Source: Vulcanimicrobiaceae bacterium
Lineage (GTDB): Bacteria > Verrucomicrobiota > Verrucomicrobiia > Limisphaerales > Palsa-1400
Direction of reading: 5' to 3'
Length of the DNA stretch: 64,000 nt
Assembly (NCBI GenBank): GCA_035511075.1
Contig: DATKFW010000005.1
Coordinates: 86,108 to 150,107 of the forward strand
This document shows, in pieces, positions 28,507-63,396 of the stretch (position 1 is the stretch's first letter; each line of letters opens with the position of its first letter). Both the position numbers and the translations under genes were made by a program. The notes under the pieces are model-generated. The model saw only the letters and a list, made by a program, of their open reading frames with translations. It was not told the DNA's origin and searched no databases.

Positions 28507-29130
28507 TTACGGAAAGAATACCCGCAGTTTTTCCAGCGCCCGGGCGCGGTGGCTTAACTGGTTCTTGACGTCTTCGCCCAATTCCGCAAATGAGCGCTCC
28601 TGCCCCTCCGGCACGAAGAGCGGGTCGTAGCCGAAGCCGCCCGAACCCGATGGAGCCAGGGCGATGCGGCCCTCGCACGCGCCTTCAAAGAAGACTGTTT
28701 GGCCGCCACCGGCCCTTGCCAGCGCCAGCACGCAGCGAAACCGGGCGGTCCGTTTCTCCGGCGCAATTCCATCGAGCAATCGGAGGAGTTTGGCGTTGTT
28801 GGCCGAGTCCGGTGAATTGCAGAAACCACCGGTCCCGAGGGCGGCAAAGCGGGCGGAGTGAACTCCAGGCGCCCCGCCAAGGGCATCGACCTCCAAGCCG
28901 GAATCGTCGGCTAGAAAGTAGAAATGAGCGCTGGCGGGATCGGCGGGGAACCAGCGGGCGAGCGATTCGGCTTTTTTCTTGGCGTTGCCTGCGAACGTGT
29001 CGGCGTCTTCCACGACGTGGGGCGCATCGGCAAAATCGTCCAGGGTGCGAATGCAAAAATTGCCGGGCAGGATCTGCCGGATTTCAGCGGTCTTATGGAC
29101 ATTGCGCGTGGCAATCAGAAGCGTTGTCAC
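28507..29130 (-). CDS. rdgB: Non-canonical purine NTP pyrophosphatase (RdgB/HAM1 family)
   Basis: 207 aa. Motifs: LLIATRNVHKTAEIRQIL, DDSGLEVDALGGAPGVHSAR, GSGGFGYDPLF, SHRARAL. Its GTG start overlaps the stop of the upstream gene (GTGA). Confidence 0.9.
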   Translation of the reverse strand: MTTLLIATRNVHKTAEIRQILPGNFCIRTLDDFADAPHVVEDADTFAGNAKKKAESLARWFPADPASAHFYFLADDSGLEVDALGGAPGVHSARFAALGTGGFCNSPDSANNAKLLRLLDGIAPEKRTARFRCVLALARAGGGQTVFFEGACEGRIALAPSGSGGFGYDPLFVPEGQERSFAELGEDVKNQLSHRARALEKLRVFFP

Positions 29131-32100
29131 GGAACTAAAGTGATTTGGAAGGGATCGGTCTGACCGTCGGGGTCAAGGATGAATCCCGACCCGCCCAGTG
29201 TCGGGCTGCTGAATGCCCCGTGGATCGTGAGTGTTTCGTTGTCGACCGGATTGTAAATGGTTCCCTTAATCACCCCGGCTGAGGAAAGGGTGATCTCCAG
29301 CTTGTCCGGCGCGTCGGGGGCGGGCACAAACTGTCCGGATTTGCTGACAGTGAGCGAATTGCTCAGGGTCGGGCTGACACTTCCGCCGCCAAAAACGACC
29401 TGATACACGGTGCCGGGGACGGGGGGAACGTAGTTGGTGCCGGTTGAGGCGGCCTCGATGTAGAATGCGTCGTTGAAATAGGTGTTCCGGGTCGGCGCCT
29501 TGACCCAATAAATCGCGCCTGTGGATCCCGAGGAGCCATCTGCCCCAATCACATTGGTCTCCCAACCGATGAGCATACCGTGCCCGTTATAAAGCGTCGC
29601 GTAAACGGGCCAAACACCGTCTTTGGACACGCCAACTCCTTCAGAGAATGTCTCGTTGTCCGCCAAGGTTCCACCCAGCGTCAAACCCCCCGTGTTGCCG
29701 ACCGAAAGCGTCGCGTAGCCGTCGTTGGTCGGGCCGAACGTGGCCTGGTTGGTGATCGTCGCCAAATTCAGCACATATTTGCCGGCCGCGGTGTTGGTGG
29801 GAAGTTGTGTCGCGGCGCGGTATCCGACCACGCTGGCATAAGTTCCGAGCGAATAAACATAGCCTCCTAGCGAATCGGAGCCGTGCGTCAAGTCGAACTC
29901 TATATCGAAATAAATCTCCGTTCCGTCAAATCCGCCGCCTCCCAGAAGCGCGATTCCGGATGGATTTACCTGGTAGAGCACCGTATATGTATAAATCGGA
30001 AACTGCAGCTTCCCGCTTATGACACCGGAGTCACTCAACGTCAATTTGAAGAATCCGGCGGTGTTGGTGGCGATGTTTGTGCCCATGAAAATGCCGTAGT
30101 ACGTCCCCGCGATGTTGGGAAAAAAGTTCAGCTTGAAGCTCTCCGAAATCAGCGTCTGCCTTCCCGCCGAGTCGGTGGCGATGGCCACCTCGGTGTAGGT
30201 CCCCTGCGGGAGATCGGACACGGGAACCGACCACGTCGTGCCGTTGACGGTGGCATATTGGGTGATGCCCACCGGAACGGTGTTCGAGAAAAGCTGGCAG
30301 ACGATTTGGGGATTGTCGACGGACGCGGAAACTTTTCCTGTCAAAATAAAACTGTTGGTCCGCACCTGCGAATTGGCGGCGGGGTAGGTGAACGAGATCG
30401 CTTTGGGCAGCCCGTTGGAAATGAATGTCGCCGTGAATGCCAGACCGCTAGACATGGGAAAAGAGAGCGCGGGGGAAATGGAGGTAAACGAGCCATCGGT
30501 CCAGTCGTAAAAAAACTCTCCCGGTTTGGGGGTCGCCCTGATGACGTACGTTGTGCCCGATTGCAGATAGGTACCGTTGGCAATCGAGGTTTTTCCCGGG
30601 CCGGTGATGGTCACGGTCAACGGGGTCAAGACCGTGAAGTCCTCCGAAATGACCGTGGTTTTACCGTCCACATTGCTGGCAAGGGCTTGAACGATATACG
30701 GTCCAGGCGCCAACTGGACGGCGGGAATCGACCATGTGCTGCTTCCGGTGGTTACCATCGGCCCGGTGACGGAATCGCCGGTGGTTTTGGAGAAAAACCG
30801 CGCCGTAATCGTGGTCAAGCCGGAGTTCTTCGCGACTTTTCCCGTCAAGACAACGCTGTTGGTGGCTACTTTCGCGTTTGCCGCCGGGTAAGTAAACGAG
30901 ATGCCCCCCGGCAGTGTGTTGGGGATGAAAGTGGCGGTCAGTTGCAAGCCGTTGGGCATGGTAAAGGACTCTGTGGGATCGACCGACACATTGGTGCCGG
31001 CGGTCCAATCGACAAACAGGGCGCCTCTTGCGGGGATTGCCTTGACGGTGTAACTGGAGCCGACCGTGGTATTCGACTCGGTCAAATTGGCGGAAAGCGT
31101 TCCGGGCCCGTTCGTATACACATTAAACGGGAATCGAGGCACCACGAACGTAGGCTGCGCCGCAATGGAAAGATTGCCTGCTCCATCTTGAGCGACAGCG
31201 TACACCGAGTACGTGTTGGGCGGCAAATTGCCGAAATTGAAGGACCAATTGGTGGCGCCGGTCGCGTCGCCGCCTTCCGGCGCACCGCCATTGAATCCCG
31301 GCGCTGAAACATAGCAAACAACGCGCGCCAGACCCACATTGTCGGTGGCTGTGCCGCTGACGATCACGTCGGCGTTGGTGGACGCCGCGCCATTGGCGGG
31401 ATTAACCACGGCGACTGTCGGTGGATTGGTGTCAAGAACAGGAGGCGTGAGAAAGGTGAAATCAACGTAAAAGAAATTGGAATCCCCCGGGGTGGTCAGC
31501 GCGAAATAATTGACCGGCAGGGAGTCAAACGGCGCTTCGCCGCTGTTGAAGAGGCCGTTGGTCGGGGCGCCGGGGGCGCCGCTGTGATCATAGATTGTCG
31601 GCGTGCTGAACGTGTTGAAATACTCCAGAATATTGGTGCCGGAAAGGATGCGCCCGAAAACAGTGAACCCGCCGTTTTGATTGTCCAGGTTTGTGGAATT
31701 GTCGGCCAAATTGAAAAAGAAGACGTTCACAGCCGAGTCGGGGTTGTCCGGGGATTTCGCCATCGCGATCGTTCCAAAGGTGTTGGGAATCAACGGGCCG
31801 ACATCATATTCGTTATCGATCTGGAACGGAAAAGGAGGAGAGTAGCCCGTGTCTGCGGTAAATGTTGAATTAATGTCGATCAGGTCCGGGGGCGGGCCGT
31901 TGGTGCGGTTATCGGTGGCATAATCGCCGCCTTGCAACACGAATCCGGGAACGCATCGCGTCCAGAACAGGTTGCTGTAGGCTCCCGTGACGATATAATG
32001 AAGGAAATTCTGCACCGTTGCCGGTTTATCATGATCGAAGAGCTGCAGGACCACGTTGCTGGTGCCGCCGGCGGCGTAGCCGGAAAAGGTCAATTGCACA

Positions 32101-32426
32101 ATTGTTCCGGGCACAAGGGTCAACTGCGCGGCCTGGCTGTTGGTGGAATCGCCTGTCGACGAAGTTACGACGACCGAATAAGCCCCGGCCTGGTTGCTGG
32201 CAACGTCATTCAAGGTCAACGTCGCGCTTGTCGCCCCGGCGATGGCACCGGTTCCGAACATCCACTGGTAAGTCGCGGCGTTCTCGGCAACCACGGTGAA
32301 ATTGGCCGTGGAAGCCGTGTTAATCGTGATGCTTTGGGGTTGGGAGCTAATGATCGGCGTTGTGGCGGTCGCATTGAGCGCAAAAGCCAAACAACCGATG
32401 AAAACCCCCTGTAAATTCATTTTCAT
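29127..32426 (-). CDS. Large secreted multidomain protein: Ig-like domain + cyclophilin-type peptidyl-prolyl isomerase + Ig-like/duplicated modules
   Basis: Start taken at MKMNLQGVFIGCLAFALNATA (signal peptide; ATG at 32426), giving 1100 aa. The ORF-track start at 32813 would overlap msrA. Cyclophilin motifs: VQNFLHYI..., FVLQGGD, GTIAMAKSPDNPDSAVNVFFFNLADN, GGFTVFGRILSG. Confidence 0.8.
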   Translation of the reverse strand: MKMNLQGVFIGCLAFALNATATTPIISSQPQSITINTASTANFTVVAENAATYQWMFGTGAIAGATSATLTLNDVASNQAGAYSVVVTSSTGDSTNSQAAQLTLVPGTIVQLTFSGYAAGGTSNVVLQLFDHDKPATVQNFLHYIVTGAYSNLFWTRCVPGFVLQGGDYATDNRTNGPPPDLIDINSTFTADTGYSPPFPFQIDNEYDVGPLIPNTFGTIAMAKSPDNPDSAVNVFFFNLADNSTNLDNQNGGFTVFGRILSGTNILEYFNTFSTPTIYDHSGAPGAPTNGLFNSGEAPFDSLPVNYFALTTPGDSNFFYVDFTFLTPPVLDTNPPTVAVVNPANGAASTNADVIVSGTATDNVGLARVVCYVSAPGFNGGAPEGGDATGATNWSFNFGNLPPNTYSVYAVAQDGAGNLSIAAQPTFVVPRFPFNVYTNGPGTLSANLTESNTTVGSSYTVKAIPARGALFVDWTAGTNVSVDPTESFTMPNGLQLTATFIPNTLPGGISFTYPAANAKVATNSVVLTGKVAKNSGLTTITARFFSKTTGDSVTGPMVTTGSSTWSIPAVQLAPGPYIVQALASNVDGKTTVISEDFTVLTPLTVTITGPGKTSIANGTYLQSGTTYVIRATPKPGEFFYDWTDGSFTSISPALSFPMSSGLAFTATFISNGLPKAISFTYPAANSQVRTNSFILTGKVSASVDNPQIVCQLFSNTVPVGITQYATVNGTTWSVPVSDLPQGTYTEVAIATDSAGRQTLISESFKLNFFPNIAGTYYGIFMGTNIATNTAGFFKLTLSDSGVISGKLQFPIYTYTVLYQVNPSGIALLGGGGFDGTEIYFDIEFDLTHGSDSLGGYVYSLGTYASVVGYRAATQLPTNTAAGKYVLNLATITNQATFGPTNDGYATLSVGNTGGLTLGGTLADNETFSEGVGVSKDGVWPVYATLYNGHGMLIGWETNVIGADGSSGSTGAIYWVKAPTRNTYFNDAFYIEAASTGTNYVPPVPGTVYQVVFGGGSVSPTLSNSLTVSKSGQFVPAPDAPDKLEITLSSAGVIKGTIYNPVDNETLTIHGAFSSPTLGGSGFILDPDGQTDPFQITLVP
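30129..31127 (-). repeat. Tandem duplication of a ~165-codon module inside the cyclophilin-domain gene
   Basis: The two units are ORF residues ~563-728 and ~731-895. They align by eye: GSSYTVKAIPARGALFVDWTAGT / GTTYVIRATPKPGEFFYDWTDGS; SFTMPNGLQLTATFIPNTLPGGISFTYPAANAKVATNSVVLTGKV / SFPMSSGLAFTATFISNGLPKAISFTYPAANSQVRTNSFILTGKV. Confidence 0.85.
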
Positions 32427-32595
32427 CGCGCCGAGTGTCTCGCAATGCCGCGCAAATTCAATGAAATAATCGCGCGCGATCGCCTTGGGATTTTGATTTG
32501 ACGGGCCACATGAGGAACACGCCCTCTTCCCGCCGCTCTTTTCTCGCCTGTTTCCTTGTTTTTTTGCGGCTCTGCCGCATAGTTTACTGGTTGGC

Positions 32596-33258
32596 ATGAA
32601 AAATCTCCGTTCGAAAAACGCGCCCCGCGGCCTCTTCCGGCCGTTCCTGTGGGCCGCCGCGATGGCCATGTGCTTGTCTTTTCCGACTGTTATGAATGCT
32701 GATCCTTCTTTGACCAATGCACCTGCAAAACTCCAATTGGCCACCTTTGGCGGCGGCTGTTTTTGGTGCGCTGAAGCCGTATTCCAACGCATTCCCGGCG
32801 TCAAATCGGTCACTTCCGGCTTCGCAGGGGGCGCGACTGCGAATCCGACCTACGAAGAGGTCTGCACAGGGCAAACCGGCCACGCGGAGGTCATCCAGAT
32901 TCAATTCGATCCTTCCGTCATTTCCTATGAGAAGCTTCTGGAAATCTTTTGGGAAGCGCACGATCCGACCACGCTAAACCGCCAGGGTGAGGACGCGGGC
33001 ACTCAATACCGGTCCATCATCCTCTACAGCGATGAGGCGCAAAAGATCGCCGCGGAAAAATCGAAATCCGAAGCCGCCCACCATTTCTCCTCGCCTATCG
33101 TGACGCAAATCGTGCCGCTGACAAAATTTTATTCCGCGGAGGGATATCATCAGGACTATTACAACCAGCATTCGCACCAGCCCTATTGCCAATTCGTCAT
33201 CCGCCCGAAGTTGCAGAAGCTAATCAGCGAAGGGGTCATTCCGACCGGTCAAAAATAG
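32596..33258 (+). CDS. msrA: Peptide-methionine (S)-S-oxide reductase MsrA with N-terminal export signal
   Basis: 220 aa. Catalytic motif [12 protein letters not shown]. It is preceded by ~45 residues with a hydrophobic signal-like segment ([23 protein letters not shown]). Confidence 0.92.
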
Positions 33259-47772: not shown

Positions 47773-47931
47773 GCGGAAGCCAAGTTCTTCGCAGCCAACC
47801 CGTTCGATTATTTGAAGGATTTGTTCACCCGCTTGCCCGCGGCCAAAATCACCCAGATCGGGGAGTTCACCCCCGCGGCATGGGCCAACCGAAACAACAA
47901 TTCTACCCGCCTCGGATTCATGGCTGCTTGA
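47773..47931 (+). pseudogene. Remnant of the C-terminus of an IS66-family transposase
   Basis: The frame reads AEAKFFAANPFDYLKDLFTRLPAAKITQIGEFTPAAWA... This matches the conserved IS66 TnpC tail pattern (K..G.NP..YL.D.L.RLP....I.EL.P..W). No upstream transposase body exists because the GH51 start codon lies at 47749. The 3' end overlaps the kinase stop. Confidence 0.7.
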
Positions 47932-50900
47932 TCTCCTCTTTCCCCTGCCTGTCGTAGCTTGGCGAAGGCGAGTCCTTCACCTCCGTCGCCGTGATTTGCT
48001 CCCACGACGGCGCGCGCCAGAGTTGCACGACGCCTCTACCATCCATGGTGCCGACAATGTTGCCGTCTGGAGAGAACGCGGCGAACGTGGGAAATTTGTT
48101 CGGCTGCCCCTCTAGCGTGATCACTTGTTGCCAGCTTTGCGTGTCCCATAGACGCAGAACCTGGTTGCCGTTTCCAAGGACTGCAAGCCTCTTGCCATCC
48201 GGCGAGAATGCCACGGAATCCCCCGGCCCAGCGGTAATGCCGTCCGAATTCGGCTCCAAATGCCAAGTGGCGGTGTCCCACACTTGACTGGAACCCTCGT
48301 AGCGGGCGAGGGCGAAGAGCTTTCCATCTGGCGAAAAAGCAGCGCCGCAAGCCCAGAGAGCATTTAAATCCAATTGGCGCTCGGTTTGGTCCGCCAGCTT
48401 TCGTAGCACGAGATCTCCGTGGTAGCCGACAATCGCGCACAGTTGATTGTTTGGCGAAAAGGCCCACGCGTTGAGAATTTGAGGCGCTCGCCAGGACTGC
48501 TTTTCCAAATCTGTCGCGAAGTCCCACTCATGCAGCATATTGCCCCGCGCAGACCAGGTGACGACACCATTTCCCTTGGGGAGAAATCCCACTACAATCA
48601 TACCATCCTGCGTGTCGATAACATCGCTCGTGGTGTTGGTCCACTGACGCCACAGCAAACGACGCGCAACGTCCCAGACCTGGATCAATCCATTGGTGGA
48701 GTATTCGCAGAGGAATCGCCCGTCATCGGAGAACTTATGGAGCAAGGAATAACGGATCAAGTTGGTGTCGGTTTCGAAGATGGGCTCGCTCTGCCGGAAA
48801 TCAGGGCCGATCCAGCGCACTACTGTCCCTCGCTGGTCGAGGGTAAGTATCGATTGACTGTCGGGTGCGAAACACCAGGCTAGGGCATTGGCCGAAATAG
48901 CGATGCCAGGACTCCGCGGATGGTTGACGGAGGTATCCCAAAAGCAAACCCCGCCAACGCCGTCACCGGTGACAAGCGTTCGATTATCCGGCATAAGCGT
49001 CAAACGCCGCACGTCATGACCATGGCCCCGCAGTGTGTCAAGGCAGGTTCGGCTGGCAACATCCCAGATGCGAACCGTCTCATCGGCGCTGCTGGAAGCG
49101 AGCTTTTTACCGTCCGGCCAAAACATAAGTGAAGTCACCATGTCATTGTGGCCCTTAAGCCGACCGATTTCTTTGCCGCTGGCAACGTCCCAAAGCGCGA
49201 TGTCCGGGTCGGGCAAGCCAGTGCCCGACGCCACCGTTTTTCCGTCGGGCGAAAACGCCACCGCAATCACATCGGACGGCACACTCCAGAGATCCTTGCC
49301 ATTACGCAGATCAACTAGACGAAGTTGCGGCGTTTCCGACAGATAGGCGTAGGCAGCCAGACGCAGATCCCCCGTTGCGGCAAAAGGGGTGCCGAAATCG
49401 GGACTGAACTGTCCCGATGGATAACTGACCACGTTGGCCGCTTGGGGTATCCGCCATAGCGCAATCCGCCCGGTGCTGCCAAAGGTTAGGGAAGTGACCA
49501 GCGTCTGGCCATCTGTGGAGAAAGTTAACCCTTCGCAAGGGGCCAATTCTTCCATCGGCACTTCGGCCAGCATAGTCCGCGTCACCGCATTCCATAAATG
49601 GAGAGTGGCGTGCATCACTCCAGAAGAGGAGGGCGCGAGACCGACGAACGCCAAAAGCGGTTCCTTCGGAGAGAAGGCCGCGCGGATCCATCGTTCGTTC
49701 GTGGCCAGGCGATCTACTTCCTTGTGCGTTCGTAAATCCCATACGGATAAGCCATCGTGCTGGACAGTGCCAATGGCCAGCCACGTTCCGTCCGCAGATA
49801 CTGTCAACGAATGAATATCGTTGGATTTCTGGCAAAGCGTCAACAGGGCATCGCTGCGGGATTGCCCCCACAAGTAGCGCCATTCCCAGCCGCGCAAATC
49901 CTTTTGCCCCGGCGCCGGCTTCTGGCGATTGAGCACTTCAAGGGCGCGGCCAAGGTTGTTTTGGTCCAGGGCTTGCATCGCCGAAATCATATCCAAGGCG
50001 TAGGCGCGCCGGCGGGCGGCCAACTCTTGGGCTTGGGCCTGCGCACGCAGTTGCGCTTCGTTTGCCTCGGCCTGCTGCGCCTGGCGGCGTTGGGCTTCCT
50101 CGTTCGCGCGGGCCGCTTGGGCGCTGTTGCGTTGTTTTATCGCTTGTTGCAGACCAATCGCCGCCAAACTCAAACCACCGGCCAACGCGATGACTACCGC
50201 CGTTCCGGCGGCGAATACAAGTTTGTTGCGACGAAACGCCTTTTGAAACCTGTAAGCCGCACTCGGCGGGCGGGCCAAGACCGGCTCGTTGTCCAGGTGC
50301 CGTTTGAGATCGAAGGCCAACCCATTGGCAGTGTCATACCGGCGCGTGCGATCCTTTTCCAGGCACTTCATCACGATCCAATCCAGATCACCTCGGAGTT
50401 GATGCAGCAGCTTCGACTTGTCGACTGAACGGCGTTTGGCCGTCGTCGTCAACTCCTCTCCACCAAGCGTAGCCAAGCGCGTGCTCGGGCGGACCGGTTC
50501 CTTCTCGCGAATGGTCTTGCGCATCGCGTCCATGCCGGAGGCGATCAGTTCCTGCGCGTCAAACGGCGTGCTGCCAGTAAGCAACTCGTAAAGCAAGACG
50601 CCCAGACTGTAAGTATCACTGCGCGTGTCAATGTCCAGGCCACTCATTTCCGCCTGCTCGGGACTCATGTAGGCTGGCGTGCCGATGAACTGGTGCAACT
50701 GCGTATAAACCGTCGCGTCGGTAAGTCGGCCTTCCGTCGCCTTGGCGATGCCGAAGTCAATCACCTTGGGCACGGGCACCCCATCGTGCAGCGTCACGAG
50801 GATGTTCGACGGCTTGATGTCCCGGTGAATGATCCCCTTTTGGTGCGCGTGTTGGATGGCCTGGCAGACCTTCATGAACAGATCCAGCCGCTCCTTGGTG

Positions 50901-51637
50901 GTGAGGGTCGCCTGGTCGCAATAGTCCGTGATTTTTATGCCGCGTACGAGTTCCATCACGAAGTAAGGGCGGCCCGTTTCCGTGGCGCCGGCATCGAGCA
51001 CCTTGGCGATGTTGGGATGATCCATCATCGCCAACGCCTGCCGCTCGGCTTCAAATCTGGCGACGACCTGCTTGGTGTCCATGCCCAGCTTGATGACCTT
51101 CAGGGCGACGCGACGGCGCACCGGCTCGGTTTGCTCGGCAACATAAACCACGCCGCAACCGCCTTCGCCCACTTTCTCCAGCACCTTGTAGCGGCCGATA
51201 GTCTTGCCGACGGCTTCATCCTCGATTTCAGCCAGATCGAGCTTGATGGTTGCTTTTACGGCGGGCGCAGCCGAGGGCGGCAATTGATCGGGCTTGTCGT
51301 GCGCGGCCAGCAGGACTTCCAGGCGCTGGCGCAGGGCGGGGTCGCCGTAGCAGGCACCGTCAAGGAAACTGGCACGCTCGGCAGGAAGTTTGCCGAGCGC
51401 GGCAGCCAGCAACACTTCTTCCCGATTTTGAGGCGATGGCACGTCTGTTTGAGATTTGCTCTGCAAGCCTATGCGCGCATCCGACGGACTGAAAGCACGA
51501 ATAATCTTTCCCAGTCGCCCAAAACCAGACGTGGCCGCTCCGACGAATACCTTGTGTCGCCACGTATAGAAGGACTGGCAGACAATGAGTGACGTGGGGA
51601 AAATAGCGTATATAGCCATCGGATTCAATTCCTCCAT
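47918..51637 (-). CDS. Ser/Thr protein kinase - TM - coiled coil - WD40 beta-propeller protein
   Basis: Hanks kinase motifs: GEGGCGVVYVA, VALKVIK, HRDIKPSNILV, DFGIAK, GTPAYMSPEQ. One TM helix (LVFAAGTAVVIALAGGLSLAAIGL) and a Q/A/R-rich coiled coil follow. About 650 aa of WD40-type repeats come next (...SPDGK..AS...D.T.R.WD...). Start uncertain: the 51637 ATG overlaps the divergent kinase gene, and alternative starts are TTG 51466 and GTG 51442. Confidence 0.88.
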   Translation of the reverse strand: MEELNPMAIYAIFPTSLIVCQSFYTWRHKVFVGAATSGFGRLGKIIRAFSPSDARIGLQSKSQTDVPSPQNREEVLLAAALGKLPAERASFLDGACYGDPALRQRLEVLLAAHDKPDQLPPSAAPAVKATIKLDLAEIEDEAVGKTIGRYKVLEKVGEGGCGVVYVAEQTEPVRRRVALKVIKLGMDTKQVVARFEAERQALAMMDHPNIAKVLDAGATETGRPYFVMELVRGIKITDYCDQATLTTKERLDLFMKVCQAIQHAHQKGIIHRDIKPSNILVTLHDGVPVPKVIDFGIAKATEGRLTDATVYTQLHQFIGTPAYMSPEQAEMSGLDIDTRSDTYSLGVLLYELLTGSTPFDAQELIASGMDAMRKTIREKEPVRPSTRLATLGGEELTTTAKRRSVDKSKLLHQLRGDLDWIVMKCLEKDRTRRYDTANGLAFDLKRHLDNEPVLARPPSAAYRFQKAFRRNKLVFAAGTAVVIALAGGLSLAAIGLQQAIKQRNSAQAARANEEAQRRQAQQAEANEAQLRAQAQAQELAARRRAYALDMISAMQALDQNNLGRALEVLNRQKPAPGQKDLRGWEWRYLWGQSRSDALLTLCQKSNDIHSLTVSADGTWLAIGTVQHDGLSVWDLRTHKEVDRLATNERWIRAAFSPKEPLLAFVGLAPSSSGVMHATLHLWNAVTRTMLAEVPMEELAPCEGLTFSTDGQTLVTSLTFGSTGRIALWRIPQAANVVSYPSGQFSPDFGTPFAATGDLRLAAYAYLSETPQLRLVDLRNGKDLWSVPSDVIAVAFSPDGKTVASGTGLPDPDIALWDVASGKEIGRLKGHNDMVTSLMFWPDGKKLASSSADETVRIWDVASRTCLDTLRGHGHDVRRLTLMPDNRTLVTGDGVGGVCFWDTSVNHPRSPGIAISANALAWCFAPDSQSILTLDQRGTVVRWIGPDFRQSEPIFETDTNLIRYSLLHKFSDDGRFLCEYSTNGLIQVWDVARRLLWRQWTNTTSDVIDTQDGMIVVGFLPKGNGVVTWSARGNMLHEWDFATDLEKQSWRAPQILNAWAFSPNNQLCAIVGYHGDLVLRKLADQTERQLDLNALWACGAAFSPDGKLFALARYEGSSQVWDTATWHLEPNSDGITAGPGDSVAFSPDGKRLAVLGNGNQVLRLWDTQSWQQVITLEGQPNKFPTFAAFSPDGNIVGTMDGRGVVQLWRAPSWEQITATEVKDSPSPSYDRQGKEEIKQP

Positions 51638-55344: not shown

Positions 55345-56105
55345 CGATAGCCGCCGGAAGCAAGGAAGGTTTCCCCCGTGATCCAGCCTGAATCCCCCGA
55401 AGCGAGGAACGTCGCGATCGTGGCGATGTCCTCCGGTTGGCCGATCCGTCCCAACGGGGTTTGGGCCTCCGCTTGTTTCTGGAAGTCACCCCCGATGAAG
55501 CCGGCAGTGTGGACGCCTTCCGTTTCGATCATGCCGGGATTGATGGCGTTGACGCGAATCTTGCGAGGCCCCAGTTCCTTGGCCAGCGATTTCGTCACGG
55601 TATCCACCGCTCCTTTGGTGGCGCTGTAAACCGAGCCGCCCGGAGGCGCCGACGTGCTGGCAACCGAACTGATATTGATAATGCTGCCGCCGGCGGCGTC
55701 AAACTGCTTGACCGCTTCTTGAGTCGCGAGAATCAAGCCGAGAACATTCACATTGAAATGCTTGTGAAAATGTTCCTCGGTGATCTGTTCGAGCGGAAGG
55801 AATTCATAGACGCCCGCGTTGTTCACGAGCACGTCGAGCCGGCCAAAGGCCTTCTTGGTTTCGGCAAACATGCGTTCGATGTCTGCTTTCTTTGCGACGT
55901 CCCCTTGCACGGCAATAGCCTTGCCGCCTTGCGCGGTGATTTCGCTCACGACCTTGGCTGCGCCGGCTTTTCCGGAAGAGTAGTTGACGGCAACCGATGC
56001 GCCGTCCGCGGCGAGTTGCCGGGCGATAGCGGCGCCGATGCCCTTGGATGCACCGGTGACAAGGGCGACTTTGCCCGCCAGTTTATTGGATGTGTTATTG
56101 CTCAT
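55341..56105 (-). CDS. Short-chain dehydrogenase/reductase (FabG-like SDR)
   Basis: 254 aa. Motifs: VALVTGASKGIGAAIA (TGxxxGIG), NNAG, catalytic YSATKGA. GGAAGGAA lies 8 nt upstream of the ATG. The gene starts 23 nt downstream of the RND-OMF stop on the same strand. Confidence 0.9.
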   Translation of the reverse strand: MSNNTSNKLAGKVALVTGASKGIGAAIARQLAADGASVAVNYSSGKAGAAKVVSEITAQGGKAIAVQGDVAKKADIERMFAETKKAFGRLDVLVNNAGVYEFLPLEQITEEHFHKHFNVNVLGLILATQEAVKQFDAAGGSIINISSVASTSAPPGGSVYSATKGAVDTVTKSLAKELGPRKIRVNAINPGMIETEGVHTAGFIGGDFQKQAEAQTPLGRIGQPEDIATIATFLASGDSGWITGETFLASGGYR

Positions 56106-56128
56106 ATATTTGTTCCTTCCATTTGTGT

Positions 56129-59100
56129 TTAGCGTTTGACTGATGCGATGACAAGATTTCCCGCCTCTGAATTGTTCCAGCCGCCGCCCAGGGCCTTGAT
56201 GAGTTGAACATCGGCGATGAGGCGCTGGCCGGAAAGCCGGGCATTGCCGCGCTCGGATTGGAGCGCGTCCCGGCTGGCGTCCACGACCTCGATATAGCTG
56301 ACAATGCCGGACCGATAACGATCAGTCGCCAGATCAACGGCGCGCCGCGAGTGCGTCACCGCGCGCTGCTGGGCGGCCGACTGATCCGCCAGATGACGAA
56401 TGGCGCTGAGGCTGTCTTCCACCTCGCCAAATGCCACGAGAACCTGCTGGCGGTAATCCGCCACCGATTCCTCGAAGACGGCCTTGGAACGCCGGTAATT
56501 TGCCCGGTTGCGGCCTCCGGTAAAGATCGGCAGCGAAAGACTTGGACCGATGGACCAGGTCCGGCTGTTCCAGTTAAATAACGTATCAACATCCGCGCTC
56601 AGGTAGCCGCCCGAACCGGTCAGCGTGAGCACGGGGAAAAACGCGGCCTTCGCAACGCCGATGCGCGCATTGGCCGAGGCAAGCTGACGTTCCGCCTGGG
56701 CGACATCCGGCCGGCGTTCCAGCAAATCGGACGGCATCCCTGCCGGGATTTCGGGCGTGGGCGGGTTCCAATTTGCCGCCCCTGCGGCGGCCACATGAAA
56801 TGAGGTCGGATCGCTCCCGGCCAGGATGGCAATGGCGTTCTCCAGTTCCTCGCGTTGTTGCGCCAGCGACGCCGCTTCGGCCTCGGTGGTGGCAAGTTCA
56901 GTTTCAGCGCGGGCGATGTCAAGGTCGTTGCCGATGCCGCCGTTGAAGCGGCTGCGGACAAGGCGCACCTGTTCCTTGCGCAACTCAACCGTGCCGGTCA
57001 CAGTCGCGATTTCGGCGTCAAGCGCCCGCAGCCTGAAATAATTTTGGGCGACGTCGGCCTGGAGAGTCAGCAGGACGTTGCCGAACGCCGCAAGGGAGCC
57101 CTGGGCGTCGGCCCGCGCGCTTTCAAATCCGCGGCGGACACGGCCCCACAAGTCAACCTCGTAACTGAGGTCCAGCGGCGTCTGCCAGGTGTTGGCCGTC
57201 AATGGGCCGTATGAGGGCGATTCGTTCGGCGAATAGCGCTGGCGGTTGCAGCTTGGGTCCAGGCTCAAGCTCGGCAGTAGATCGCTGCGCGCCACGCGCG
57301 CGGTCGCGCGGGCCTGGTCAACCCGCGCGACCGCGGCCTTGAGGTTTTGGTTGGCGGCCAACGCCTGCAATTCCAAATCGTTTAAATTCGTGTCGCCGAA
57401 GACCTCCCACCATCGGCCCTTGGGCACAGTGTCCAGCGGGCGGCCTTCCTTCCAATGTCCCAGTTCCATCGCCTTGTAATTGAGGGGAAACGAGTTTGTC
57501 GGCGGCCTATAGTCCGGCCCGATGGTCAGCATCCCCGCTCGGGCGGAAAAGGGCGAAAGCAACGACGCCACCAGGAGAATTGCCGCCGCCGCCCCTGCGG
57601 CGCCGAGGGCCGGGCGACTGGGTTCATGCGTGGAAATGGCGGAGGGCTTTTTGGAAACTCGCCTCATCAAGGTAAGATAAAAGACCGGCGTCAGGAACAG
57701 GCCGAACAGCGTTACGCCGATCATCCCGGCAAAGACGGCGATGCCCATCGCCTGCCGCATCTCCGAACCGGCGCCGTGCGCCACAACAAGCGGGAAAACC
57801 CCCGCGATGAAAGCAATGGAGGTCATCAGGATCGGGCGGAGACGAAGGCGGCTGGCTTCAACGGCAGCCTGGAAAGCCGGAAGACCTTCCTCGTCCCGTT
57901 TGTGCCGGGCAAATTCGACAATGAGAATGGCGTTCTTGCACGCCAGACCGACGAGCACGATCAGCCCGATTTGCGTGAAAATATTATTGTCACCCCCCTT
58001 GAGCCAGACGCCGCTGATGGCGAAGAGCAGGCACATCGGCACAATCAGAATGATCGCCAGCGGCAAACGCAGGCTCTCGTATTGCGCGGCCAGCACGAGG
58101 AACACGAGCAGGATGCAAAGCGGGTAAACGTAAATGGCCGAGTCCCCCGCAAGAATGCGCTGGTAGGTCAAGTCGGTCCATTCATACGTCATCCCCTTGG
58201 GCAGCCCCTCTGTGGCGAGCCGCTCGATCAACGCCTCGGCCTGGCCGGAACTGAAACCGGCGGCGGGCCCGCCGTTGATTTCGGCGGCGGGATAGCCGTT
58301 GTAACGCAGGGCGCGGTTGGGGCCGTGCGTTTCCGTCACTCTAACCAAAGCGCCCAGCGGCACCATCTCGCCCCTGTCATTGCGCGTCTTGAGCCGCGTG
58401 ATGTCTTCGGGTCGGTCGCGAAACTGGGCGTCCGCCTGGGCAACGACCTCATAAGTGCGGCCAAAGCGATTGAAATCATTGACATAAAGCGACCCAAGAT
58501 AAATCTGCATTGTCTCGAACAGATTTTGCAGCGGCACGCCTTCTTGCTTGGCTTTGATGCGGTCGATGTCCGCGTCCAGTTGGGGCACGTTGACTGTGAA
58601 AGTGGAAAACACGCTGTCCAGCCCGGGGGTCTGATAACTTTTGCCAATGATTCCCTGGAGATTTTGGTAAAGAGCGTCGTAGCCAAGATCGGCGCGGTCT
58701 TCCACATAGAGCTTGAAGCCGCCGATGGTGCCCAGGCCGTTGACCGGCGGCGGCGGCACCGCGAGGATGAAGGCGTCCTGAATTCCCGCAAACTGCTGAT
58801 TCAAGGCGCTGGCGATGGCCGGCCCGCTGAGTTGGGACGACTTGCGCTCCTCGAACGGCTTGAGTGTAAAGAATACGATTCCTTCGTTGGGCGACACGCT
58901 GAATCCGCTGATGCTCAATCCAGGGAAGGCAACCGCGCTTTCCACTCCAGGTTGTTTGAGGCCGATGTCCGACATGCGGCGGATGACCGCTTCGGTGCGG
59001 TCGAGCGATGCGGCGTCGGGCAATTGGGCGAAGGCGACCAGGTATTGTTTGTCCTGCGTCGGCACAAAGCCGGTGGGAACTTTGTTGAAGCTCCAGGCGG

Positions 59101-60778
59101 TCAGGGCCACAAGGCCGCCGTAAACCACCAGCGCCACGGTGCTCTTCCGCAACACCCTGGCCACGCCGCCGGAGTATTTGTTTCCGGCCCACGCGAAAAT
59201 CCGGTTGAACGGGCCGAAGAACCAGCCGAGCGATTTTTCCATGAACCGGGCGAACGCATCTTTGGGCGCATTGTGGTCCTTGAGCAACACGGCGCAGAGG
59301 GCCGGGGAAAGCGTCAGTGAACTGAACGCGGAAATCACCGTCGAAATGGCAATCGTGATGGCGAATTGCTTGTAGAATTGCCCTGTCAGGCCGCTGATGA
59401 ACGCCGTCGGCACGAATACGGCGCATAGCACAAGCGCAGTGGCAATGATCGGGCTGGTCACTTCGCTCATCGCCCGTTTGGCGGCGTCCACCGGCGCCAG
59501 CCCCAGCGCGATGTTGCGCTCGACGTTCTCGACGACAACGATGGCGTCGTCCACCACGATGCCAATGGCCAGCACCAGGCCGAACAGGGACAGATTATTG
59601 ATGGAAAAGCCCAGCGCCAGCATCACGGCAAAAGTGCCGATCAGCGAGACGGGCACCGCGACAAGCGGGATGATCGACGCGCGCCATGTTTGCAGGAAAA
59701 CAATGACCACAATGACAACCAGCAGAATCGCCTCCAGCAACGTGTGAACCACTGCCTCGATGGAGTGCCGCACGAAGATCGTCGGATCATAAACGACCGA
59801 ATAATCCACGCCGTCGGGAAAATTCTTCTTGAGCTGCTCCATGGTGCGCCGCACGTCGGACGAGAGCTGCAGCGCGTTTGCGCCCGGAGTTTGAAAGATG
59901 GGCAGGGCGACGGCAGTCTTGTTGTTCAAGAGCGAACGCAGCGCGTAACTGTCCGCGCTCAGTTCGACCCGGGCGATGTCCTTGAGCAGGGTCTTCTCGC
60001 CGTTGGGGCCGGTCTTGACGATGATGTTCCCAAATTCCTCCGGGGAAAGCAGCCGGCCCTTCGCGTTGATCTGCAACTCAAAATCCACGGGCTGCGAAAC
60101 CGGTTGCTGGCCGATCGCGCCGGCGGCGATCTGCACATTTTGTTCGCGAATGGCGCTGACCACGTCGCTGGCGGTAAGATTTCGCGCGGCGACCTTGTCC
60201 GGGTTGAGCCAGATTCGCATCGCATAATCGCCGGAGCCGAAAACCTGCACGTCACCCGCGCCCGGGATGCGCGCCAGCACATCCTTTACCTGGAGGGTGG
60301 CGTAATTGCGCAGGTAAACCGCGTCGTACCGCCCCGATGGCGAGAAGAGATGCACGACCATGGTCAGGTCGGGCGATTGCTTGGTCGTCGTCACCCCCAA
60401 TTGGCGAACTTCGTCTGGCAGCTTGGACAGCACCTGCGAGACGCGGTTTTGCACCTGGACCTGGGCTTTGTCCACGTCCGTGCCAAGCCTGAACGTCACC
60501 GTCAGCGTCATGACCCCGTCGGGCGTCGCCTGCGAGAACATGTAAAGCGAATTCTCCACGCCGTTGATGGACTGCTCCAGCGGCGAGGCGACCGTTTCGG
60601 CGATGGTCTTGGGATTGGCGCCGGGATAAACCGCTCGGACCACGACCGTCGGCGGGACCACCTCCGGATATTCGCTGATCGGCAGGCGGAACATGGAGAT
60701 CAGCCCCACAAGGAAAATCACCGCCGACAGCACGCCCGCAAAAATCGGGCGGCGGATGAAGAAGTGCGAGAAGTTCAT
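56129..60778 (-). CDS. In-frame fusion: RND (HAE1, AcrB/MexB-like) inner-membrane permease + NodT/OprM-type outer-membrane factor
   Basis: Single 1549-codon ORF. Residues 1 to ~1045 are RND (MNFSHFFIRRPIFAGVLSAVIFL...TPVFYLTLMRRVSKK). Residues 1083-1549 are OMF (MLTIGPDYRPP...RWWEVFGDTNLNDLELQALAANQNLKAAVARVDQARA...LIKALGGGWN). The linker A1057-L1074 is hydrophobic and is followed by A-R-A-G; it contains no Cys. Confidence 0.9.
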   Translation of the reverse strand: MNFSHFFIRRPIFAGVLSAVIFLVGLISMFRLPISEYPEVVPPTVVVRAVYPGANPKTIAETVASPLEQSINGVENSLYMFSQATPDGVMTLTVTFRLGTDVDKAQVQVQNRVSQVLSKLPDEVRQLGVTTTKQSPDLTMVVHLFSPSGRYDAVYLRNYATLQVKDVLARIPGAGDVQVFGSGDYAMRIWLNPDKVAARNLTASDVVSAIREQNVQIAAGAIGQQPVSQPVDFELQINAKGRLLSPEEFGNIIVKTGPNGEKTLLKDIARVELSADSYALRSLLNNKTAVALPIFQTPGANALQLSSDVRRTMEQLKKNFPDGVDYSVVYDPTIFVRHSIEAVVHTLLEAILLVVIVVIVFLQTWRASIIPLVAVPVSLIGTFAVMLALGFSINNLSLFGLVLAIGIVVDDAIVVVENVERNIALGLAPVDAAKRAMSEVTSPIIATALVLCAVFVPTAFISGLTGQFYKQFAITIAISTVISAFSSLTLSPALCAVLLKDHNAPKDAFARFMEKSLGWFFGPFNRIFAWAGNKYSGGVARVLRKSTVALVVYGGLVALTAWSFNKVPTGFVPTQDKQYLVAFAQLPDAASLDRTEAVIRRMSDIGLKQPGVESAVAFPGLSISGFSVSPNEGIVFFTLKPFEERKSSQLSGPAIASALNQQFAGIQDAFILAVPPPPVNGLGTIGGFKLYVEDRADLGYDALYQNLQGIIGKSYQTPGLDSVFSTFTVNVPQLDADIDRIKAKQEGVPLQNLFETMQIYLGSLYVNDFNRFGRTYEVVAQADAQFRDRPEDITRLKTRNDRGEMVPLGALVRVTETHGPNRALRYNGYPAAEINGGPAAGFSSGQAEALIERLATEGLPKGMTYEWTDLTYQRILAGDSAIYVYPLCILLVFLVLAAQYESLRLPLAIILIVPMCLLFAISGVWLKGGDNNIFTQIGLIVLVGLACKNAILIVEFARHKRDEEGLPAFQAAVEASRLRLRPILMTSIAFIAGVFPLVVAHGAGSEMRQAMGIAVFAGMIGVTLFGLFLTPVFYLTLMRRVSKKPSAISTHEPSRPALGAAGAAAAILLVASLLSPFSARAGMLTIGPDYRPPTNSFPLNYKAMELGHWKEGRPLDTVPKGRWWEVFGDTNLNDLELQALAANQNLKAAVARVDQARATARVARSDLLPSLSLDPSCNRQRYSPNESPSYGPLTANTWQTPLDLSYEVDLWGRVRRGFESARADAQGSLAAFGNVLLTLQADVAQNYFRLRALDAEIATVTGTVELRKEQVRLVRSRFNGGIGNDLDIARAETELATTEAEAASLAQQREELENAIAILAGSDPTSFHVAAAGAANWNPPTPEIPAGMPSDLLERRPDVAQAERQLASANARIGVAKAAFFPVLTLTGSGGYLSADVDTLFNWNSRTWSIGPSLSLPIFTGGRNRANYRRSKAVFEESVADYRQQVLVAFGEVEDSLSAIRHLADQSAAQQRAVTHSRRAVDLATDRYRSGIVSYIEVVDASRDALQSERGNARLSGQRLIADVQLIKALGGGWNNSEAGNLVIASVKR

Positions 60779-60821
60779 GAGTTTAAGCGTGTGGGTTGGT
60801 CTGGCGTTTCCTGCGCGCGGA

Positions 60822-62033
60822 TCACCGTTTGGCGATCTTCACGCTCCCGCTGTCGGCCACTTCTTCCTCCGGCGTCACCGGCATCCCGGGCCGGATGCGT
60901 TCCATTCCGTTGACGACGATCTTTTCGCCCGCCAGCAGGCCCGATCGGACAATGCGCTTGCCATCAACCTCCGGACCGAGCTTGACCTCGGTGTAGGCAA
61001 CGGTGTTTGTGGCCGTGAGGGTCAATACATATTTCTGCGCCTGATCGGTCCCGATGGCCCGATCGGAAACCAGCAACGCCGCATGCCGTTCGCTCAACGG
61101 AACCCGGATGCGCGCAAACAATCCCGGCACAATCCGTCCGTCGTCGTTTGAAAACACGGCGCGCAACAGGATGCTGCCGGTGCCGGATTCCACGTGATTG
61201 TCGAACGACTCGATATATCCGTGATGGGGAAAGCCCGTTTCATCGGCAAGCTCCAGGTCGACGGGCGTCGAGCCGGCGCCGTTGGTCTCAATTTTTTTTG
61301 CAAGCGCGAGGGCGTTGAATTTCAAGAGCGAATCCTCGTCAACGTCCGCATAGACATAAACCGGATTGACTGAAACCAGCGTCGTCAATAAAGACGCCGC
61401 GCCTGCACCGCCGTTGACGAAATTGCCTTCGGTCAGGAAGGCCCGGCTGACGCGGCCGTCGATCGGCGCGCGCACCTGCGTGTACTCCAGGTCGAGCTTC
61501 GCCGAATCGCGCGCGGCTTGCGCGGCGAGCAACGCCGCTTTGGCCTCCTGAAATCGGGCCACGCGCGCGTCGGATTCCTCCGTCGAGATGGCCTTGTTGG
61601 CCAGCAGGGCGGCGGCGCGGTTGGCTTCGCGCCCGGCGTTTTCCAATTGCACACTGGCGCGTTCGGCCTCCGCCTCGAGATTATTGAAGGCCGCCTGGTG
61701 CCAGCGCGGGTCAATGACAAAGAGAACATCGCCCTTCTTGACCAGTTGGCCCGATTGAAACCGCACTTCCTGGATGTAACCGGAGACTCGCGGCCGAACC
61801 TCGACAGATTCCACCGCCTCGGTCCGACCGGTGAATTCTTCCCATTCAACCAATTCCTTCTGTTCGACAGGCGCCACCGTCACAGTGGGCGGTGGGGGCG
61901 GCGCCGGGGCGGCGTTGCCGCTGCAGCCAGCCAGAAGGATGGCCACGATTGCAATTACCATGGCGATCAAGGTGGATCGCAAAACTTTCAACGTTGTCAT
62001 AAAATATTCCGGTTTAAAATTAAGGTTGTCCAT
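60822..62033 (-). CDS. RND efflux periplasmic adaptor (membrane fusion protein, AcrA/MexA-like lipoprotein)
   Basis: 403 aa. Lipobox ILLAGCSG. Motifs: barrel-sandwich/hairpin (VEVRPRVSGYI, coiled AQAARDSAKLDLEYTQVRAPIDGRV) and a C-terminal VVNGMERIRPGMPV. An alternative start is ATG 62000. Confidence 0.9.
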   Translation of the reverse strand: MDNLNFKPEYFMTTLKVLRSTLIAMVIAIVAILLAGCSGNAAPAPPPPPTVTVAPVEQKELVEWEEFTGRTEAVESVEVRPRVSGYIQEVRFQSGQLVKKGDVLFVIDPRWHQAAFNNLEAEAERASVQLENAGREANRAAALLANKAISTEESDARVARFQEAKAALLAAQAARDSAKLDLEYTQVRAPIDGRVSRAFLTEGNFVNGGAGAASLLTTLVSVNPVYVYADVDEDSLLKFNALALAKKIETNGAGSTPVDLELADETGFPHHGYIESFDNHVESGTGSILLRAVFSNDDGRIVPGLFARIRVPLSERHAALLVSDRAIGTDQAQKYVLTLTATNTVAYTEVKLGPEVDGKRIVRSGLLAGEKIVVNGMERIRPGMPVTPEEEVADSGSVKIAKR

Positions 62034-62048
62034 AGGCTGTGGCGCCCT

Positions 62049-62384
62049 TCAGGCGGCGTGTGCAAGAAATTCGCCGCGACGCACGGAACGCTGATGATTG
62101 GACCACGCGGCGACTTGTTGGACCTTCTCCTCCGCGAGGTCGGGCAGCACGAGGAGCGGCGCAAAGGTTGTCGCGGCCAAGGCGTGCGCCTCGTTCACCG
62201 CTTGCCGGACAAGGCGGGATTCCACGTCCGCGTATTCGGCGCTCAAACGCTGGGCCAGGGCCGACTTGAGATGCTCTGCCTTGGCTGCGAGAGAAATGGG
62301 GGCGTATTTCTTCGAGCCTTTCGCAGGCGATTTCTCCGTTGTGAATTTAACTGACTGGTCAATTCTATTTTGGATGGTATTCAT
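62049..62384 (-). CDS. Hypothetical 111-aa soluble protein between tetR and the efflux genes
   Basis: It fills the gap between the tetR stop (62417) and the MFP start (62033) on the same strand. No TM segment and no recognisable motif. Coding status is inferred from position and ORF length only. Confidence 0.42.
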   Translation of the reverse strand: MNTIQNRIDQSVKFTTEKSPAKGSKKYAPISLAAKAEHLKSALAQRLSAEYADVESRLVRQAVNEAHALAATTFAPLLVLPDLAEEKVQQVAAWSNHQRSVRRGEFLAHAA

Positions 62385-62416
62385 GCGTGTTCTTATGTTT
62401 TATTAGTTCAATACTG

Positions 62417-63028
62417 TCAGACTGCTACCGTCTTTGCCCCGATGAAATTCATTACTGTGGATTCCATGCCTTCCAGGACTTTCAGGTCGTTTTGCACCCT
62501 GGCTTCCAGCATCATTCCCATCAGCAGCGATTGCACAGTGTAAGACGCGGCCACAGGATCCTTCACGGTGACGGAGCCTTCCCGGATGGCGTCAGCAATC
62601 GCGCTTTCAATATATTTCCTCTTGGAACTCATTAATTCCTCGCTCTTGGAGCGGATTTTCTCGTCAAACGTGGCCACTTCGCTTCCCACGCTGGCATAGG
62701 GACAACCGCACACATGCCCGTATTTTTCGGCCTTTTGCTGCTGGTCCGCGTAAATGATCCGGCACAAATTCTGAATTCGTTCCAAAGGCGGAACCTGCGG
62801 GGAAAACATGCGGTCCATCTCCGGGCGATGCTCCCTCCAGTATTCCTCGCACGCCTCCACAACCAAATCCGCCTTGGACCGAAAGAAGTGATAAAAACTG
62901 CCTTTGTTGATTCCGGCGCGCTTGCAAATATCGTCCACGCTTACGGATCCGTAGCTGCTGTCCCAAATGAGATCGAATCCCACTTGCAGCAACTTTTCTT
63001 TAGTTTCACACGTCTTCTTCATATTCAA
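62417..63028 (-). CDS. TetR/AcrR-family transcriptional regulator
   Basis: 203 aa. N-terminal HTH: KEKLLQVGFDLIWDSSYGSVSVDDICKRAGINKGSFYHFFRSKADL. Confidence 0.9.
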   Translation of the reverse strand: MNMKKTCETKEKLLQVGFDLIWDSSYGSVSVDDICKRAGINKGSFYHFFRSKADLVVEACEEYWREHRPEMDRMFSPQVPPLERIQNLCRIIYADQQQKAEKYGHVCGCPYASVGSEVATFDEKIRSKSEELMSSKRKYIESAIADAIREGSVTVKDPVAASYTVQSLLMGMMLEARVQNDLKVLEGMESTVMNFIGAKTVAV

Positions 63029-63396
63029 TCCCGATTCTCAAATTCTCCCAACGCCACCACTCTCGCATGACTATACTGACCAGTCAACTTTTATTTGCAA
63101 AAATATTAATTTTTTTTGCTCGATGCGGATTCTACCCATAAGCAATTGTTTGATAACCACTTAACCTACAATGACACTGTGAACGAAATCGAAAAGGGTC
63201 ACAAAAAACCACGTCAAAGCCCAAAGAGTGGACCCTTTCCCCCAAAATCTGTCCCGAATGGCCATTACACTGTACAAAAACGGGGCCAATTTGAAGTTAG
63301 CATGTGTTATTAATGCCTGGAGCGAGCGTAAGCCACACTTCTTTAAGGCACTTACACCCCGGGACGTGTCAACATTACGGCAAAGATTGAGGCTCC

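Follow-up and report, generated by a model that had tools for sequence, protein, structure and literature searches.

The 64,000-nucleotide stretch analysed here (hereafter the window; contig DATKFW010000005.1, from a genome placed in the Verrucomicrobiia) carries on its minus strand a single open reading frame (ORF) that joins the inner-membrane permease to the outer-membrane factor (OMF) of an efflux pump of the resistance-nodulation-division (RND) type in one polypeptide. The ORF (56129..60778, minus) runs in one frame from ATG to stop over 1549 codons plus the stop codon, with 0 stops and 0 frame changes in the junction DNA when read directly, and encodes a complete MexF/OqxB-type RND permease (residues 1-1047) followed by a complete NodT/OprM-type OMF (residues ~1086-1535). 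Sequence comparisons strongly favour a genuine fusion of the two genes over an error in sequencing, and indicate that the fusion characterises a large Verrucomicrobiia clade and is not unique to the window genome. The product is probably the polyprotein precursor of a MexEF-OprN/OqxAB-type pump, in which a thirteenth transmembrane (TM) helix would be inserted, the OMF exported, and a non-lipidated OMF released by signal peptidase I. RND-OMF fusions are widespread but apparently undescribed, and what the clade of the window adds, as judged from the junctions, is the replacement of an internal lipoprotein signal by a signal-peptidase-I-type signal.

Both moieties were identified by profile, motif and structure comparisons. 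In the first, Pfam ACR_tran spans residues 3-1036 (E=0), the NCBIfam model RND_permease_1 (NF000282) scores 1460.6 bits over residues 4-1038 against a cutoff of 1250, and TIGR00915 scores 1178 bits against a cutoff of 940; OqxB is the best specific NCBIfam model (1433 bits). The permease core, delimited by the RND_permease_1 profile, structure alignment and motifs, comprises residues 1-1037 up to the end of TM12 (57668..60778, minus), and alignment with solved RND permeases is end to end, with residues 1-1044 of the query against 1-1041 of the chain of 7cz9/8zxs. The proton relay of AcrB consists of an Asp pair in TM4, a Lys in TM10, and Arg/Thr in TM11, which we take to be represented here by the motifs VVDDAIVVVENVER (408-421), ACKNAILIVEFA (946-957), and RLRLRPILMTS (977-987). 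These motifs are nearly invariant across 46 homologues. A hydropathy scan located RND TM clusters at 12-30, 343-499, and 880-1029, missing TM7 (~546-564) at the threshold of 1.6, and detected an extra segment after TM12 (1057-1075), giving 13 hydrophobic segments expected in the precursor. The second moiety contains two Pfam OEP repeats and matches TIGR01845 (NodT OMF) with 434.7 bits against a cutoff of 210 over residues 1086-1533, corresponding to profile positions 12-460 of 460. It aligns with mature residues 5-453 of OprM (E=1.5e-63), with P1088 paired to OprM P5 and L1084 at the position of the lipidated OprM Cys1, and it also aligns over the full length of OprN. By these alignments the OMF moiety is a clear NodT-family homologue that lacks the lipoprotein character of its family and is TolC-like in that respect. 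A preliminary description of this DNA, made from the letters alone, had reported one 1549-codon minus-strand frame with two complete proteins, and the ORF list, translation, and junction DNA bear out the frame, as the Pfam, NCBIfam, structure, and OprM comparisons do the two proteins. Some of its numbering required correction, since the junction peptide is 38 rather than 37 residues long, GPDY starts at residue 1087 instead of 1083, and ALGGGWN (1529-1535), which had been placed at the C-terminus (residue 1549), is followed by 14 further residues of the ORF.

The fusion is conserved far beyond the window genome. Full-length fused homologues with 80-100% identity were found in at least 120 protein clusters, all of 1534-1562 aa and all with ACR_tran and OEP; their sources are JGI, ENA, NCBI, and Logan assemblies, and the named ones are Verrucomicrobia or Pedosphaera. 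Another contig carries a 99.9%-identical copy of the fused protein (P0001). Among 80 related loci (L001-L080) fetched from a species-representative genome collection, 47 encode the RND permease and OMF in one uninterrupted frame, and two loci from long-read metagenome-assembled genomes (MAGs; L044 and L049) have an intact junction with frameshifts further downstream, bringing the fused junctions to 49/80, nearly all from Verrucomicrobiia or Pedosphaera. At species level, the genomes nearest to the window are from uncultured Verrucomicrobiia of soil and peat (L050 and L018). Nei-Gojobori estimates against eight relatives (dS, the synonymous divergence, 0.6-1.5) gave ratios of nonsynonymous to synonymous change (omega) of 0.05-0.09 in the permease, 0.09-0.16 in the OMF, 0.2-1.0 in a spacer of the junction, and 0.06-0.63 in the hydrophobic and c-region that follows it. 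The spacer is 22-68% identical to that of relatives whose RND part is 85-94% identical. The low omega points to strong purifying selection on both halves and indicates that both are functional, and the open junction has outlived near-saturating synonymous divergence. Fused loci of the Verrucomicrobiia type with 60-70% identity were also seen in MAGs labelled Bifidobacteriaceae, Haliangiales, Pseudomonadales, Sulfopaludibacter, Sulfotelmatobacter, and Acidiferrales (L014, L015, L016, L025, L027, L035, L036, and L042), for which mis-binning or mislabelling seems more likely than real horizontal transfer.

The junction has the anatomy of an internal signal sequence. TM12 ends with ...TPVFYLTL at residue 1037 and is followed by MRRVSKK (1038-1044; 57647..57667, minus), the usual basic cytoplasmic tail of RND permeases, which doubles as the positive n-region of the internal signal and includes Met1038, a candidate internal start whose codon occupies 57665-57667, in keeping with the position first given for it (57667). 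A polar, Pro-rich spacer, PSAISTHEPSRP (1045-1056; 57611..57646, minus), is fast-evolving and variable in 120 homologues. The h-region or putative TM13, ALGAAGAAAAILLVASLLSPF (1057-1077; 57548..57610, minus), was delimited by Kyte-Doolittle hydropathy, with a 19-residue mean of 2.09 over 1057-1075 that matches genuine TM helices. The c-region S-A-R-A (1078-1081; 57536..57547, minus) follows a conserved A-x-A pattern, and signal peptidase I is predicted to cut after A1081, in front of G1082 and two residues upstream of L1084, the OprM Cys1 equivalent; GPDY follows at 1087-1090. The predicted mature, non-lipidated OMF, placed by TIGR01845 and the OprM alignment, would therefore comprise the 468 residues G1082-R1549 (56132..57535, minus). 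No Cys occurs within residues 1038-1090, so that the junction is cysteine-free, as had been proposed. The composition of the internal signal is that of a signal peptidase I substrate, whereas its position is not N-terminal, as it begins at residue 1038, behind the 12 expected TM helices, unless Met1038 also serves as a start. An AlphaFold2 model of residues 1030-1549 built with 46 homologues was poor (mean pLDDT, the predicted local confidence, 63; pTM, the predicted global score, 0.48; linker <50) and contained a low-confidence helix at 1062-1073. The tetranucleotide ATGA in gcATGAacc (57626-57629, minus), inside the spacer, was considered as a stop/start overlap and rejected: its ATG and TGA lie in two unused frames, the alternative-frame peptide (MNPVARPSAPQGRRRQ...) is not signal-like, and the match is probably coincidental.

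The same anatomy recurs across the clade. In 157 unique junctions, with positions counted relative to GPDY, the hydrophobic stretch is preceded by a median net charge of +4, and the uncharged run has a median length of 25 residues. Position -8 (-3 from the cut site) is Ala in 130 of the 157, position -6 (-1 from the cut site) is Ala in 148, and position -5 is Gly in 131; position -7 is variable (K/R/Q/H/N), and positions -9 to -11 often hold Ser or Pro. Such an arrangement agrees with the -3/-1 rule for signal peptidase I sites, here preceded by a helix breaker, and the linker is conserved in its properties (tail charge, uncharged run, A-x-A|G) and not in its sequence. The Sec-signal shape with an A-R-A site, noticed earlier in the window, is a clade feature in which A-x-A|G is nearly invariant, and comparison of orthologous loci, the check that had been proposed, found both the fusion kept in 49/80 loci and Leu at the OprM Cys1 position in 122 of the 157 junctions. 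Two close relatives (L047 and L054) have a separate OMF gene with its own Met and an N-terminal signal without Cys, whose end, A-S-G|G or A-F-A|G, is as far from GPDY as the A-x-A|G of the fusion. Since these split forms share the motif and its spacing, the motif in the fusion is most simply read as a real signal-peptidase site.

Lipidation may have been lost within the fused lineage. Six fused loci, namely L038, L039, L040, L043, L045, and L046 (labelled Planctomycetota), have a canonical lipobox at the corresponding place (pattern L/F-T/S-G-C), exemplified by VVLTGC|KVGPDY and LLFSGC|RSLGPEY. A quick neighbour-joining tree of 845 concatenated residues, computed without support values, placed the fused forms with Cys on a branch below the large fused A-x-A clade, and nested the split forms L047/L054, L048/L053, and L051/L052 within the fused ones. 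The branching of this unsupported tree tentatively suggests the order of a fusion with a lipobox, a lipobox-to-AxA switch, and then occasional secondary fission. The proteobacterial homologues (Pseudomonas, Bordetella, and Herbaspirillum; L055-L080) are ordinary pairs of genes, with a recognisable lipobox in most of those inspected. In two MAGs labelled Akkermansia sp. (L051, 2204-3029; L052, 5170-6013), the RND and OMF genes are separate and ~830 nt apart; the RND frame stays open past its tail, first through a sequence resembling the linker (GPASGPTGAVVGTVAVLILGC...) and then through a long extension without homology, and the OMF carries a fresh N-terminal lipoprotein signal, so that the locus looks like a former fusion broken by insertion. 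Separate OMF genes without the lipobox Cys (e.g. ...AIAALPGVGPDY) were also observed in MAGs of the more distant Opitutaceae/Nibricoccus (L064, L066, and L076), and loss of OMF lipidation may be more general in Verrucomicrobiota than the fused clade alone.

Fusions of the two components also occur in other lineages. When 1.84 billion representative proteins were scanned without a profile, using residues 851-1549 as the query, at least eight further full-length fusions emerged (1484-1541 aa; 31-41% identity over the matched stretches), and in each a K/R tail and a hydrophobic stretch lead up to a junction lipobox that contains Cys (L/x-x-G/S-C). The named ones come from Acidobacteriota/Bryobacteraceae, Kiritimatiellota bacterium B12222 (WFB35000.1; on a 4.43-Mb contig), and Muribaculaceae, and a search seeded with the Muribaculaceae protein added at least 120 clusters at 60-100% identity, with lengths of 1481-1531 aa throughout. 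Some of the Bacteroidota fused clusters hold >100 member sequences and extend to up to 72 contigs, and the junction contains Cys in 76/76 unique Bacteroidota sequences. Many members of this family (P0296-P0414, ~1045-1070) have, by eye, a second Cys seven residues on (SC-SGVKN-C, SC-SPAKH-C). In databases, RND-OMF fusions are annotated as plain 'RND permease' or with a double name. The fusions of Muribaculaceae/Bacteroides, Acidobacteriota, Kiritimatiellota B12222, a Planctomycetota MAG, and basal Verrucomicrobia show the same order of RND permease, K/R tail, hydrophobic stretch, processing site, and OMF as the window. However, they keep the lipobox Cys, so processing by Lgt and Lsp is expected, and their RND parts are 32-52% identical to that of the window, compared with 65% over 1037 residues between the window and unfused proteobacterial RND permeases. 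Because the RND part of the window is closer to unfused than to other fused proteins, the fusion would have arisen several times, and the fusions in different lineages are most likely independent. Recurrence would be easy to understand: where the two genes are neighbours, losing the intervening stop codon in frame places the OMF signal behind the cytoplasmic RND tail and automatically makes it a TM13 with the correct N-in/C-out orientation.

The biogenesis favoured for the window protein begins with insertion of the RND permease into the inner membrane, with 12 TM helices and a cytoplasmic basic C-terminal tail. The hydrophobic stretch 1057-1077 would then insert N-in/C-out as TM13 and act as an internal Sec signal, driving the 468-residue OMF moiety into the periplasm in a Sec-dependent manner. 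Signal peptidase I would cut after A-R-A1081 to yield a TolC-like OMF starting at G1082, the freed OMF would assemble into the outer membrane, and the RND permease would retain the extra helix; at the lipobox of the Cys-variant fusions, this role would fall to Lgt and Lsp. Tripartite pumps have a stoichiometry of 3:6:3, and a plausible advantage of the fusion is that RND and OMF protomers would necessarily be made 1:1, in line with their 3:3 ratio in the pump; this stoichiometry is further treated in the literature. From the fusion, its conservation, the signal anatomy, the A-x-A|G site, and the lipobox equivalents, we infer membrane insertion, export, cleavage, and TM13 retention. Since the basal and independent fusions carry a lipobox where the clade of the window has A-x-A|G, a processing site has always been retained, and the nested secondary fissions suggest that the OMF works as a separate secreted protein. 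Moreover, only five residues separate the hydrophobic and c-region from GPDY, which could not span the periplasm, so the moieties would have to separate.

Several observations weigh against this scheme. The internal signal lies after 12 TM helices, where cleavage by signal peptidase I is uncommon in bacteria, and the uncharged stretch of ~25 residues is longer than the h-region of a typical cleaved signal (10-15) and could be a signal anchor, although its first third is Ala/Gly-rich and weakly hydrophobic. The AlphaFold2 model, with a linker pLDDT <50, is uninformative on TM13 packing. Met1038 is conserved, so that a separately initiated OMF is possible, and cleavage itself is deduced from sequence. 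Of the readings offered in the preliminary description, the fusion is strongly supported; among the mechanisms, the evidence best supports a linker that serves as a thirteenth TM helix or internal export signal and is then cleaved (given A-x-A|G, the OprM Cys position, the split relatives, and the lipobox fusions), and internal initiation at Met1038 is weaker.

Internal initiation at Met1038 (57667) would yield a separate pre-OMF, MRRVSKK...SARA|G, with the full-length fusion as a minor or non-productive product, and is considered unlikely. Met occupies this position in 153/157 unique junctions, and all three signal-peptide regions lie downstream of it. However, the same Met is kept in relatives whose OMF has a separate gene and start (L047, L048, L053, and L054), and it is therefore better explained as a residue of the TM12 end than as a fusion-specific start signal. 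Four fused junctions have no Met at all before the hydrophobic stretch, and the independent fusions P0123, P0132, P0141, and P0177 have none between the TM12 end and that stretch. The ATG is not preceded by a Shine-Dalgarno-like motif (ttttatcttaccttgATG), which is weak evidence because the RND start codon also lacks one. Nor is a promoter-like site nearby: a promoter and terminator scan of 55900-63300 gave site counts at chance level across the region, with none near the junction. Restarting at Met1038 would further leave the loss of the stop codon unexplained. The open frame itself was dropped as an argument against this explanation, as a Met1038 start shares the RND frame and needs the same open frame. 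Internal initiation is compatible with cleavage, and both routes could operate together.

Release of the OMF might instead be effected by another protease or at another site, such as an intramembrane protease within the hydrophobic stretch, since internal signals can be poor substrates of signal peptidase I. This seems improbable in view of the conserved small residues at -3 and -1 of the cut site, the variable -2, and the frequent Pro/Ser at -4 to -6, which together form the signature of signal peptidase I, and the linker has no other conserved motif. It is still harder to accept that the polypeptide stays intact, with a permanent TM13 tethering the OMF covalently to the permease. The uncharged stretch is, with its median of 25 residues, long enough for a TM anchor, and cleavage is a prediction. 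However, GPDY begins five residues after the c-region, and the OprM counterpart of this motif comes after a lipidated Cys that is embedded in the outer membrane; even with an N-terminal arm of ~45 residues undocked, the known pump architecture would leave ~150 Å and the adaptor sheath to cross. The conserved A-x-A|G or lipobox would be purposeless in an uncleaved protein, and the re-split relatives appear to function with free OMFs. An artefact, in which two ordinary adjacent genes would have been joined by loss of a stop codon or a shift of frame through faulty sequencing or assembly, has practically no chance of being correct and is refuted for practical purposes by these comparisons: in Proteobacteria the RND and OMF genes normally lie side by side (L055-L080) and frameshifts occur elsewhere in the gene in some long-read MAGs of the clade (L044, L049, L057, and L060), but at least 120 protein clusters and 49 genomic loci, produced by unrelated projects and with unrelated sequencing technologies, have the open junction, selection acts on both flanks and on the signal motif, and the 99.9%-identical copy lies on another contig.

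Extending polyprotein processing beyond the window, RND-OMF polyproteins may constitute a widespread, overlooked biogenesis route in which an internal signal read by Sec exports the OMF and stays behind as a functional helix 13, a broader proposal that we put forward with some doubt. If it is true, the internal signal would be of lipoprotein type in most lineages and of signal-peptidase-I type in the Verrucomicrobiia clade of the window, and RND helix 13 would possibly occupy an AcrZ-like site. The 1:1 stoichiometry would be hard-wired, with assembly of the inner- and outer-membrane halves spatially coupled, and, with the fusion otherwise unchanged, the lipobox-to-AxA switch would offer a natural experiment on the reason for OMF lipidation.

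Among known systems, the HAE1 pumps MexEF-OprN (Pseudomonas aeruginosa) and OqxAB share with the window locus the order regulator-adaptor-RND-OMF and the same protein families. However, in those systems the RND permease and OMF come from separate genes, the OMF being a lipoprotein that carries an L-x-G-C lipobox, whereas the window has one ORF and A-x-A|G. The nearest precedent in logic known to us may be FbcH, the cytochrome b-c1 polyprotein of Bradyrhizobium japonicum that Thony-Meyer et al. are said to have described in PNAS in 1991. In FbcH, a polytopic inner-membrane protein, an internal signal, and a periplasmic partner are reportedly encoded in one ORF and separated by cleavage at the signal. 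FbcH belongs to the respiratory bc1 complex and its partner reportedly stays at the inner membrane, whereas the partner in the window must reach the outer membrane. TolC (Escherichia coli) resembles the predicted product in being an OMF exported by a signal-peptidase-I-type signal without N-terminal acylation. However, TolC is distant in sequence from the OMF of the window (E ~3e-6 vs ~1e-63 for OprM), is encoded away from pumps, is common to several transporters, and has an ordinary N-terminal signal. PMC13082787 discusses TolC's lack of lipidation. Natural fusions are known within tripartite machinery from the tandem adaptor DSY0927 (PMC4446572, where pump stoichiometry is also discussed) and within RND machinery from the single-chain SecDF of Thermus (PMC8277102). 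These, too, fuse components of one machine and reflect a fixed stoichiometry, but their parts lie in the same compartment, and neither needs an internal export signal or cleavage. The two tripartite-pump reviews (PMC4446572 and PMC8277102) describe fused adaptors and fused SecDF and no RND-OMF fusion, and full-text literature searches found no description of a natural RND-OMF fusion, in agreement with the earlier remark that no characterised pump has its inner- and outer-membrane components as one gene product.

The arrangement matters because tripartite RND pumps, which are always described as three separate gene products, are the chief machines of intrinsic multidrug resistance in diderm bacteria. 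It poses a biogenesis problem, in that an outer-membrane protein of 50 kDa has to be exported and released from the C-terminal end of a 12-TM protein, and bacterial examples of such export via an internal signal or lipobox are very few. The fusion provides a genetic handle on pump stoichiometry and assembly order and predicts RND permeases with a 13th helix. Its lipobox and AxA variants bear on why most OMFs are lipidated and TolC is not (PMC13082787). In addition, the fused form is common in gut Bacteroidales, where it is labelled 'RND permease', leading to under-counting of OMFs in resistome and genome annotation. Questions of OMF lipidation, internal signal processing, and pump stoichiometry become directly testable with these proteins.

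The genes around the fusion complete the pump locus. At its head is a TetR-family regulator (62417..63028, minus; Pfam TetR_N and TetR_C_13), followed by a MexE/OqxA-type periplasmic adaptor of the membrane fusion protein (MFP) family (60822..62033, minus; TIGR01730, 270 bits; best match the MexE model). The adaptor begins with a canonical lipobox (...AIVAILLAGC|SGN), which indicates that the genome makes lipoproteins and that the missing Cys is specific to the OMF. The adaptor gene upstream of the fused gene is kept in related loci, and in nearly every fused locus with sufficient flanking sequence a TetR homologue is found in the same position upstream of the MFP gene. No second efflux system was found within the 64-kb window, where the large ORFs at 14320-18914 are DnaE2 and ImuB. 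These belong to three co-directional ORFs (14320-19597, minus) that resemble a mutagenesis cassette, comprising a DnaE-type polymerase of 1042 aa (PHP, Pol3 alpha, finger, and HHH domains), a Y-family ImuB-like protein of 489 aa (IMS), and, at the ImuA position, a 227-aa ORF with no Pfam match; the trio would correspond to an imuA-imuB-dnaE2 cassette. Elsewhere in the window, a 1239-aa protein (47918-51637, minus) combines a Ser/Thr protein kinase (residues 150-436) with C-terminal WD40 and PD40 beta-propellers, and a 1228-aa protein (29127-32813, minus) has a cyclophilin-type peptidyl-prolyl isomerase among Ig-like/InlB-B-repeat domains, an unusual combination.

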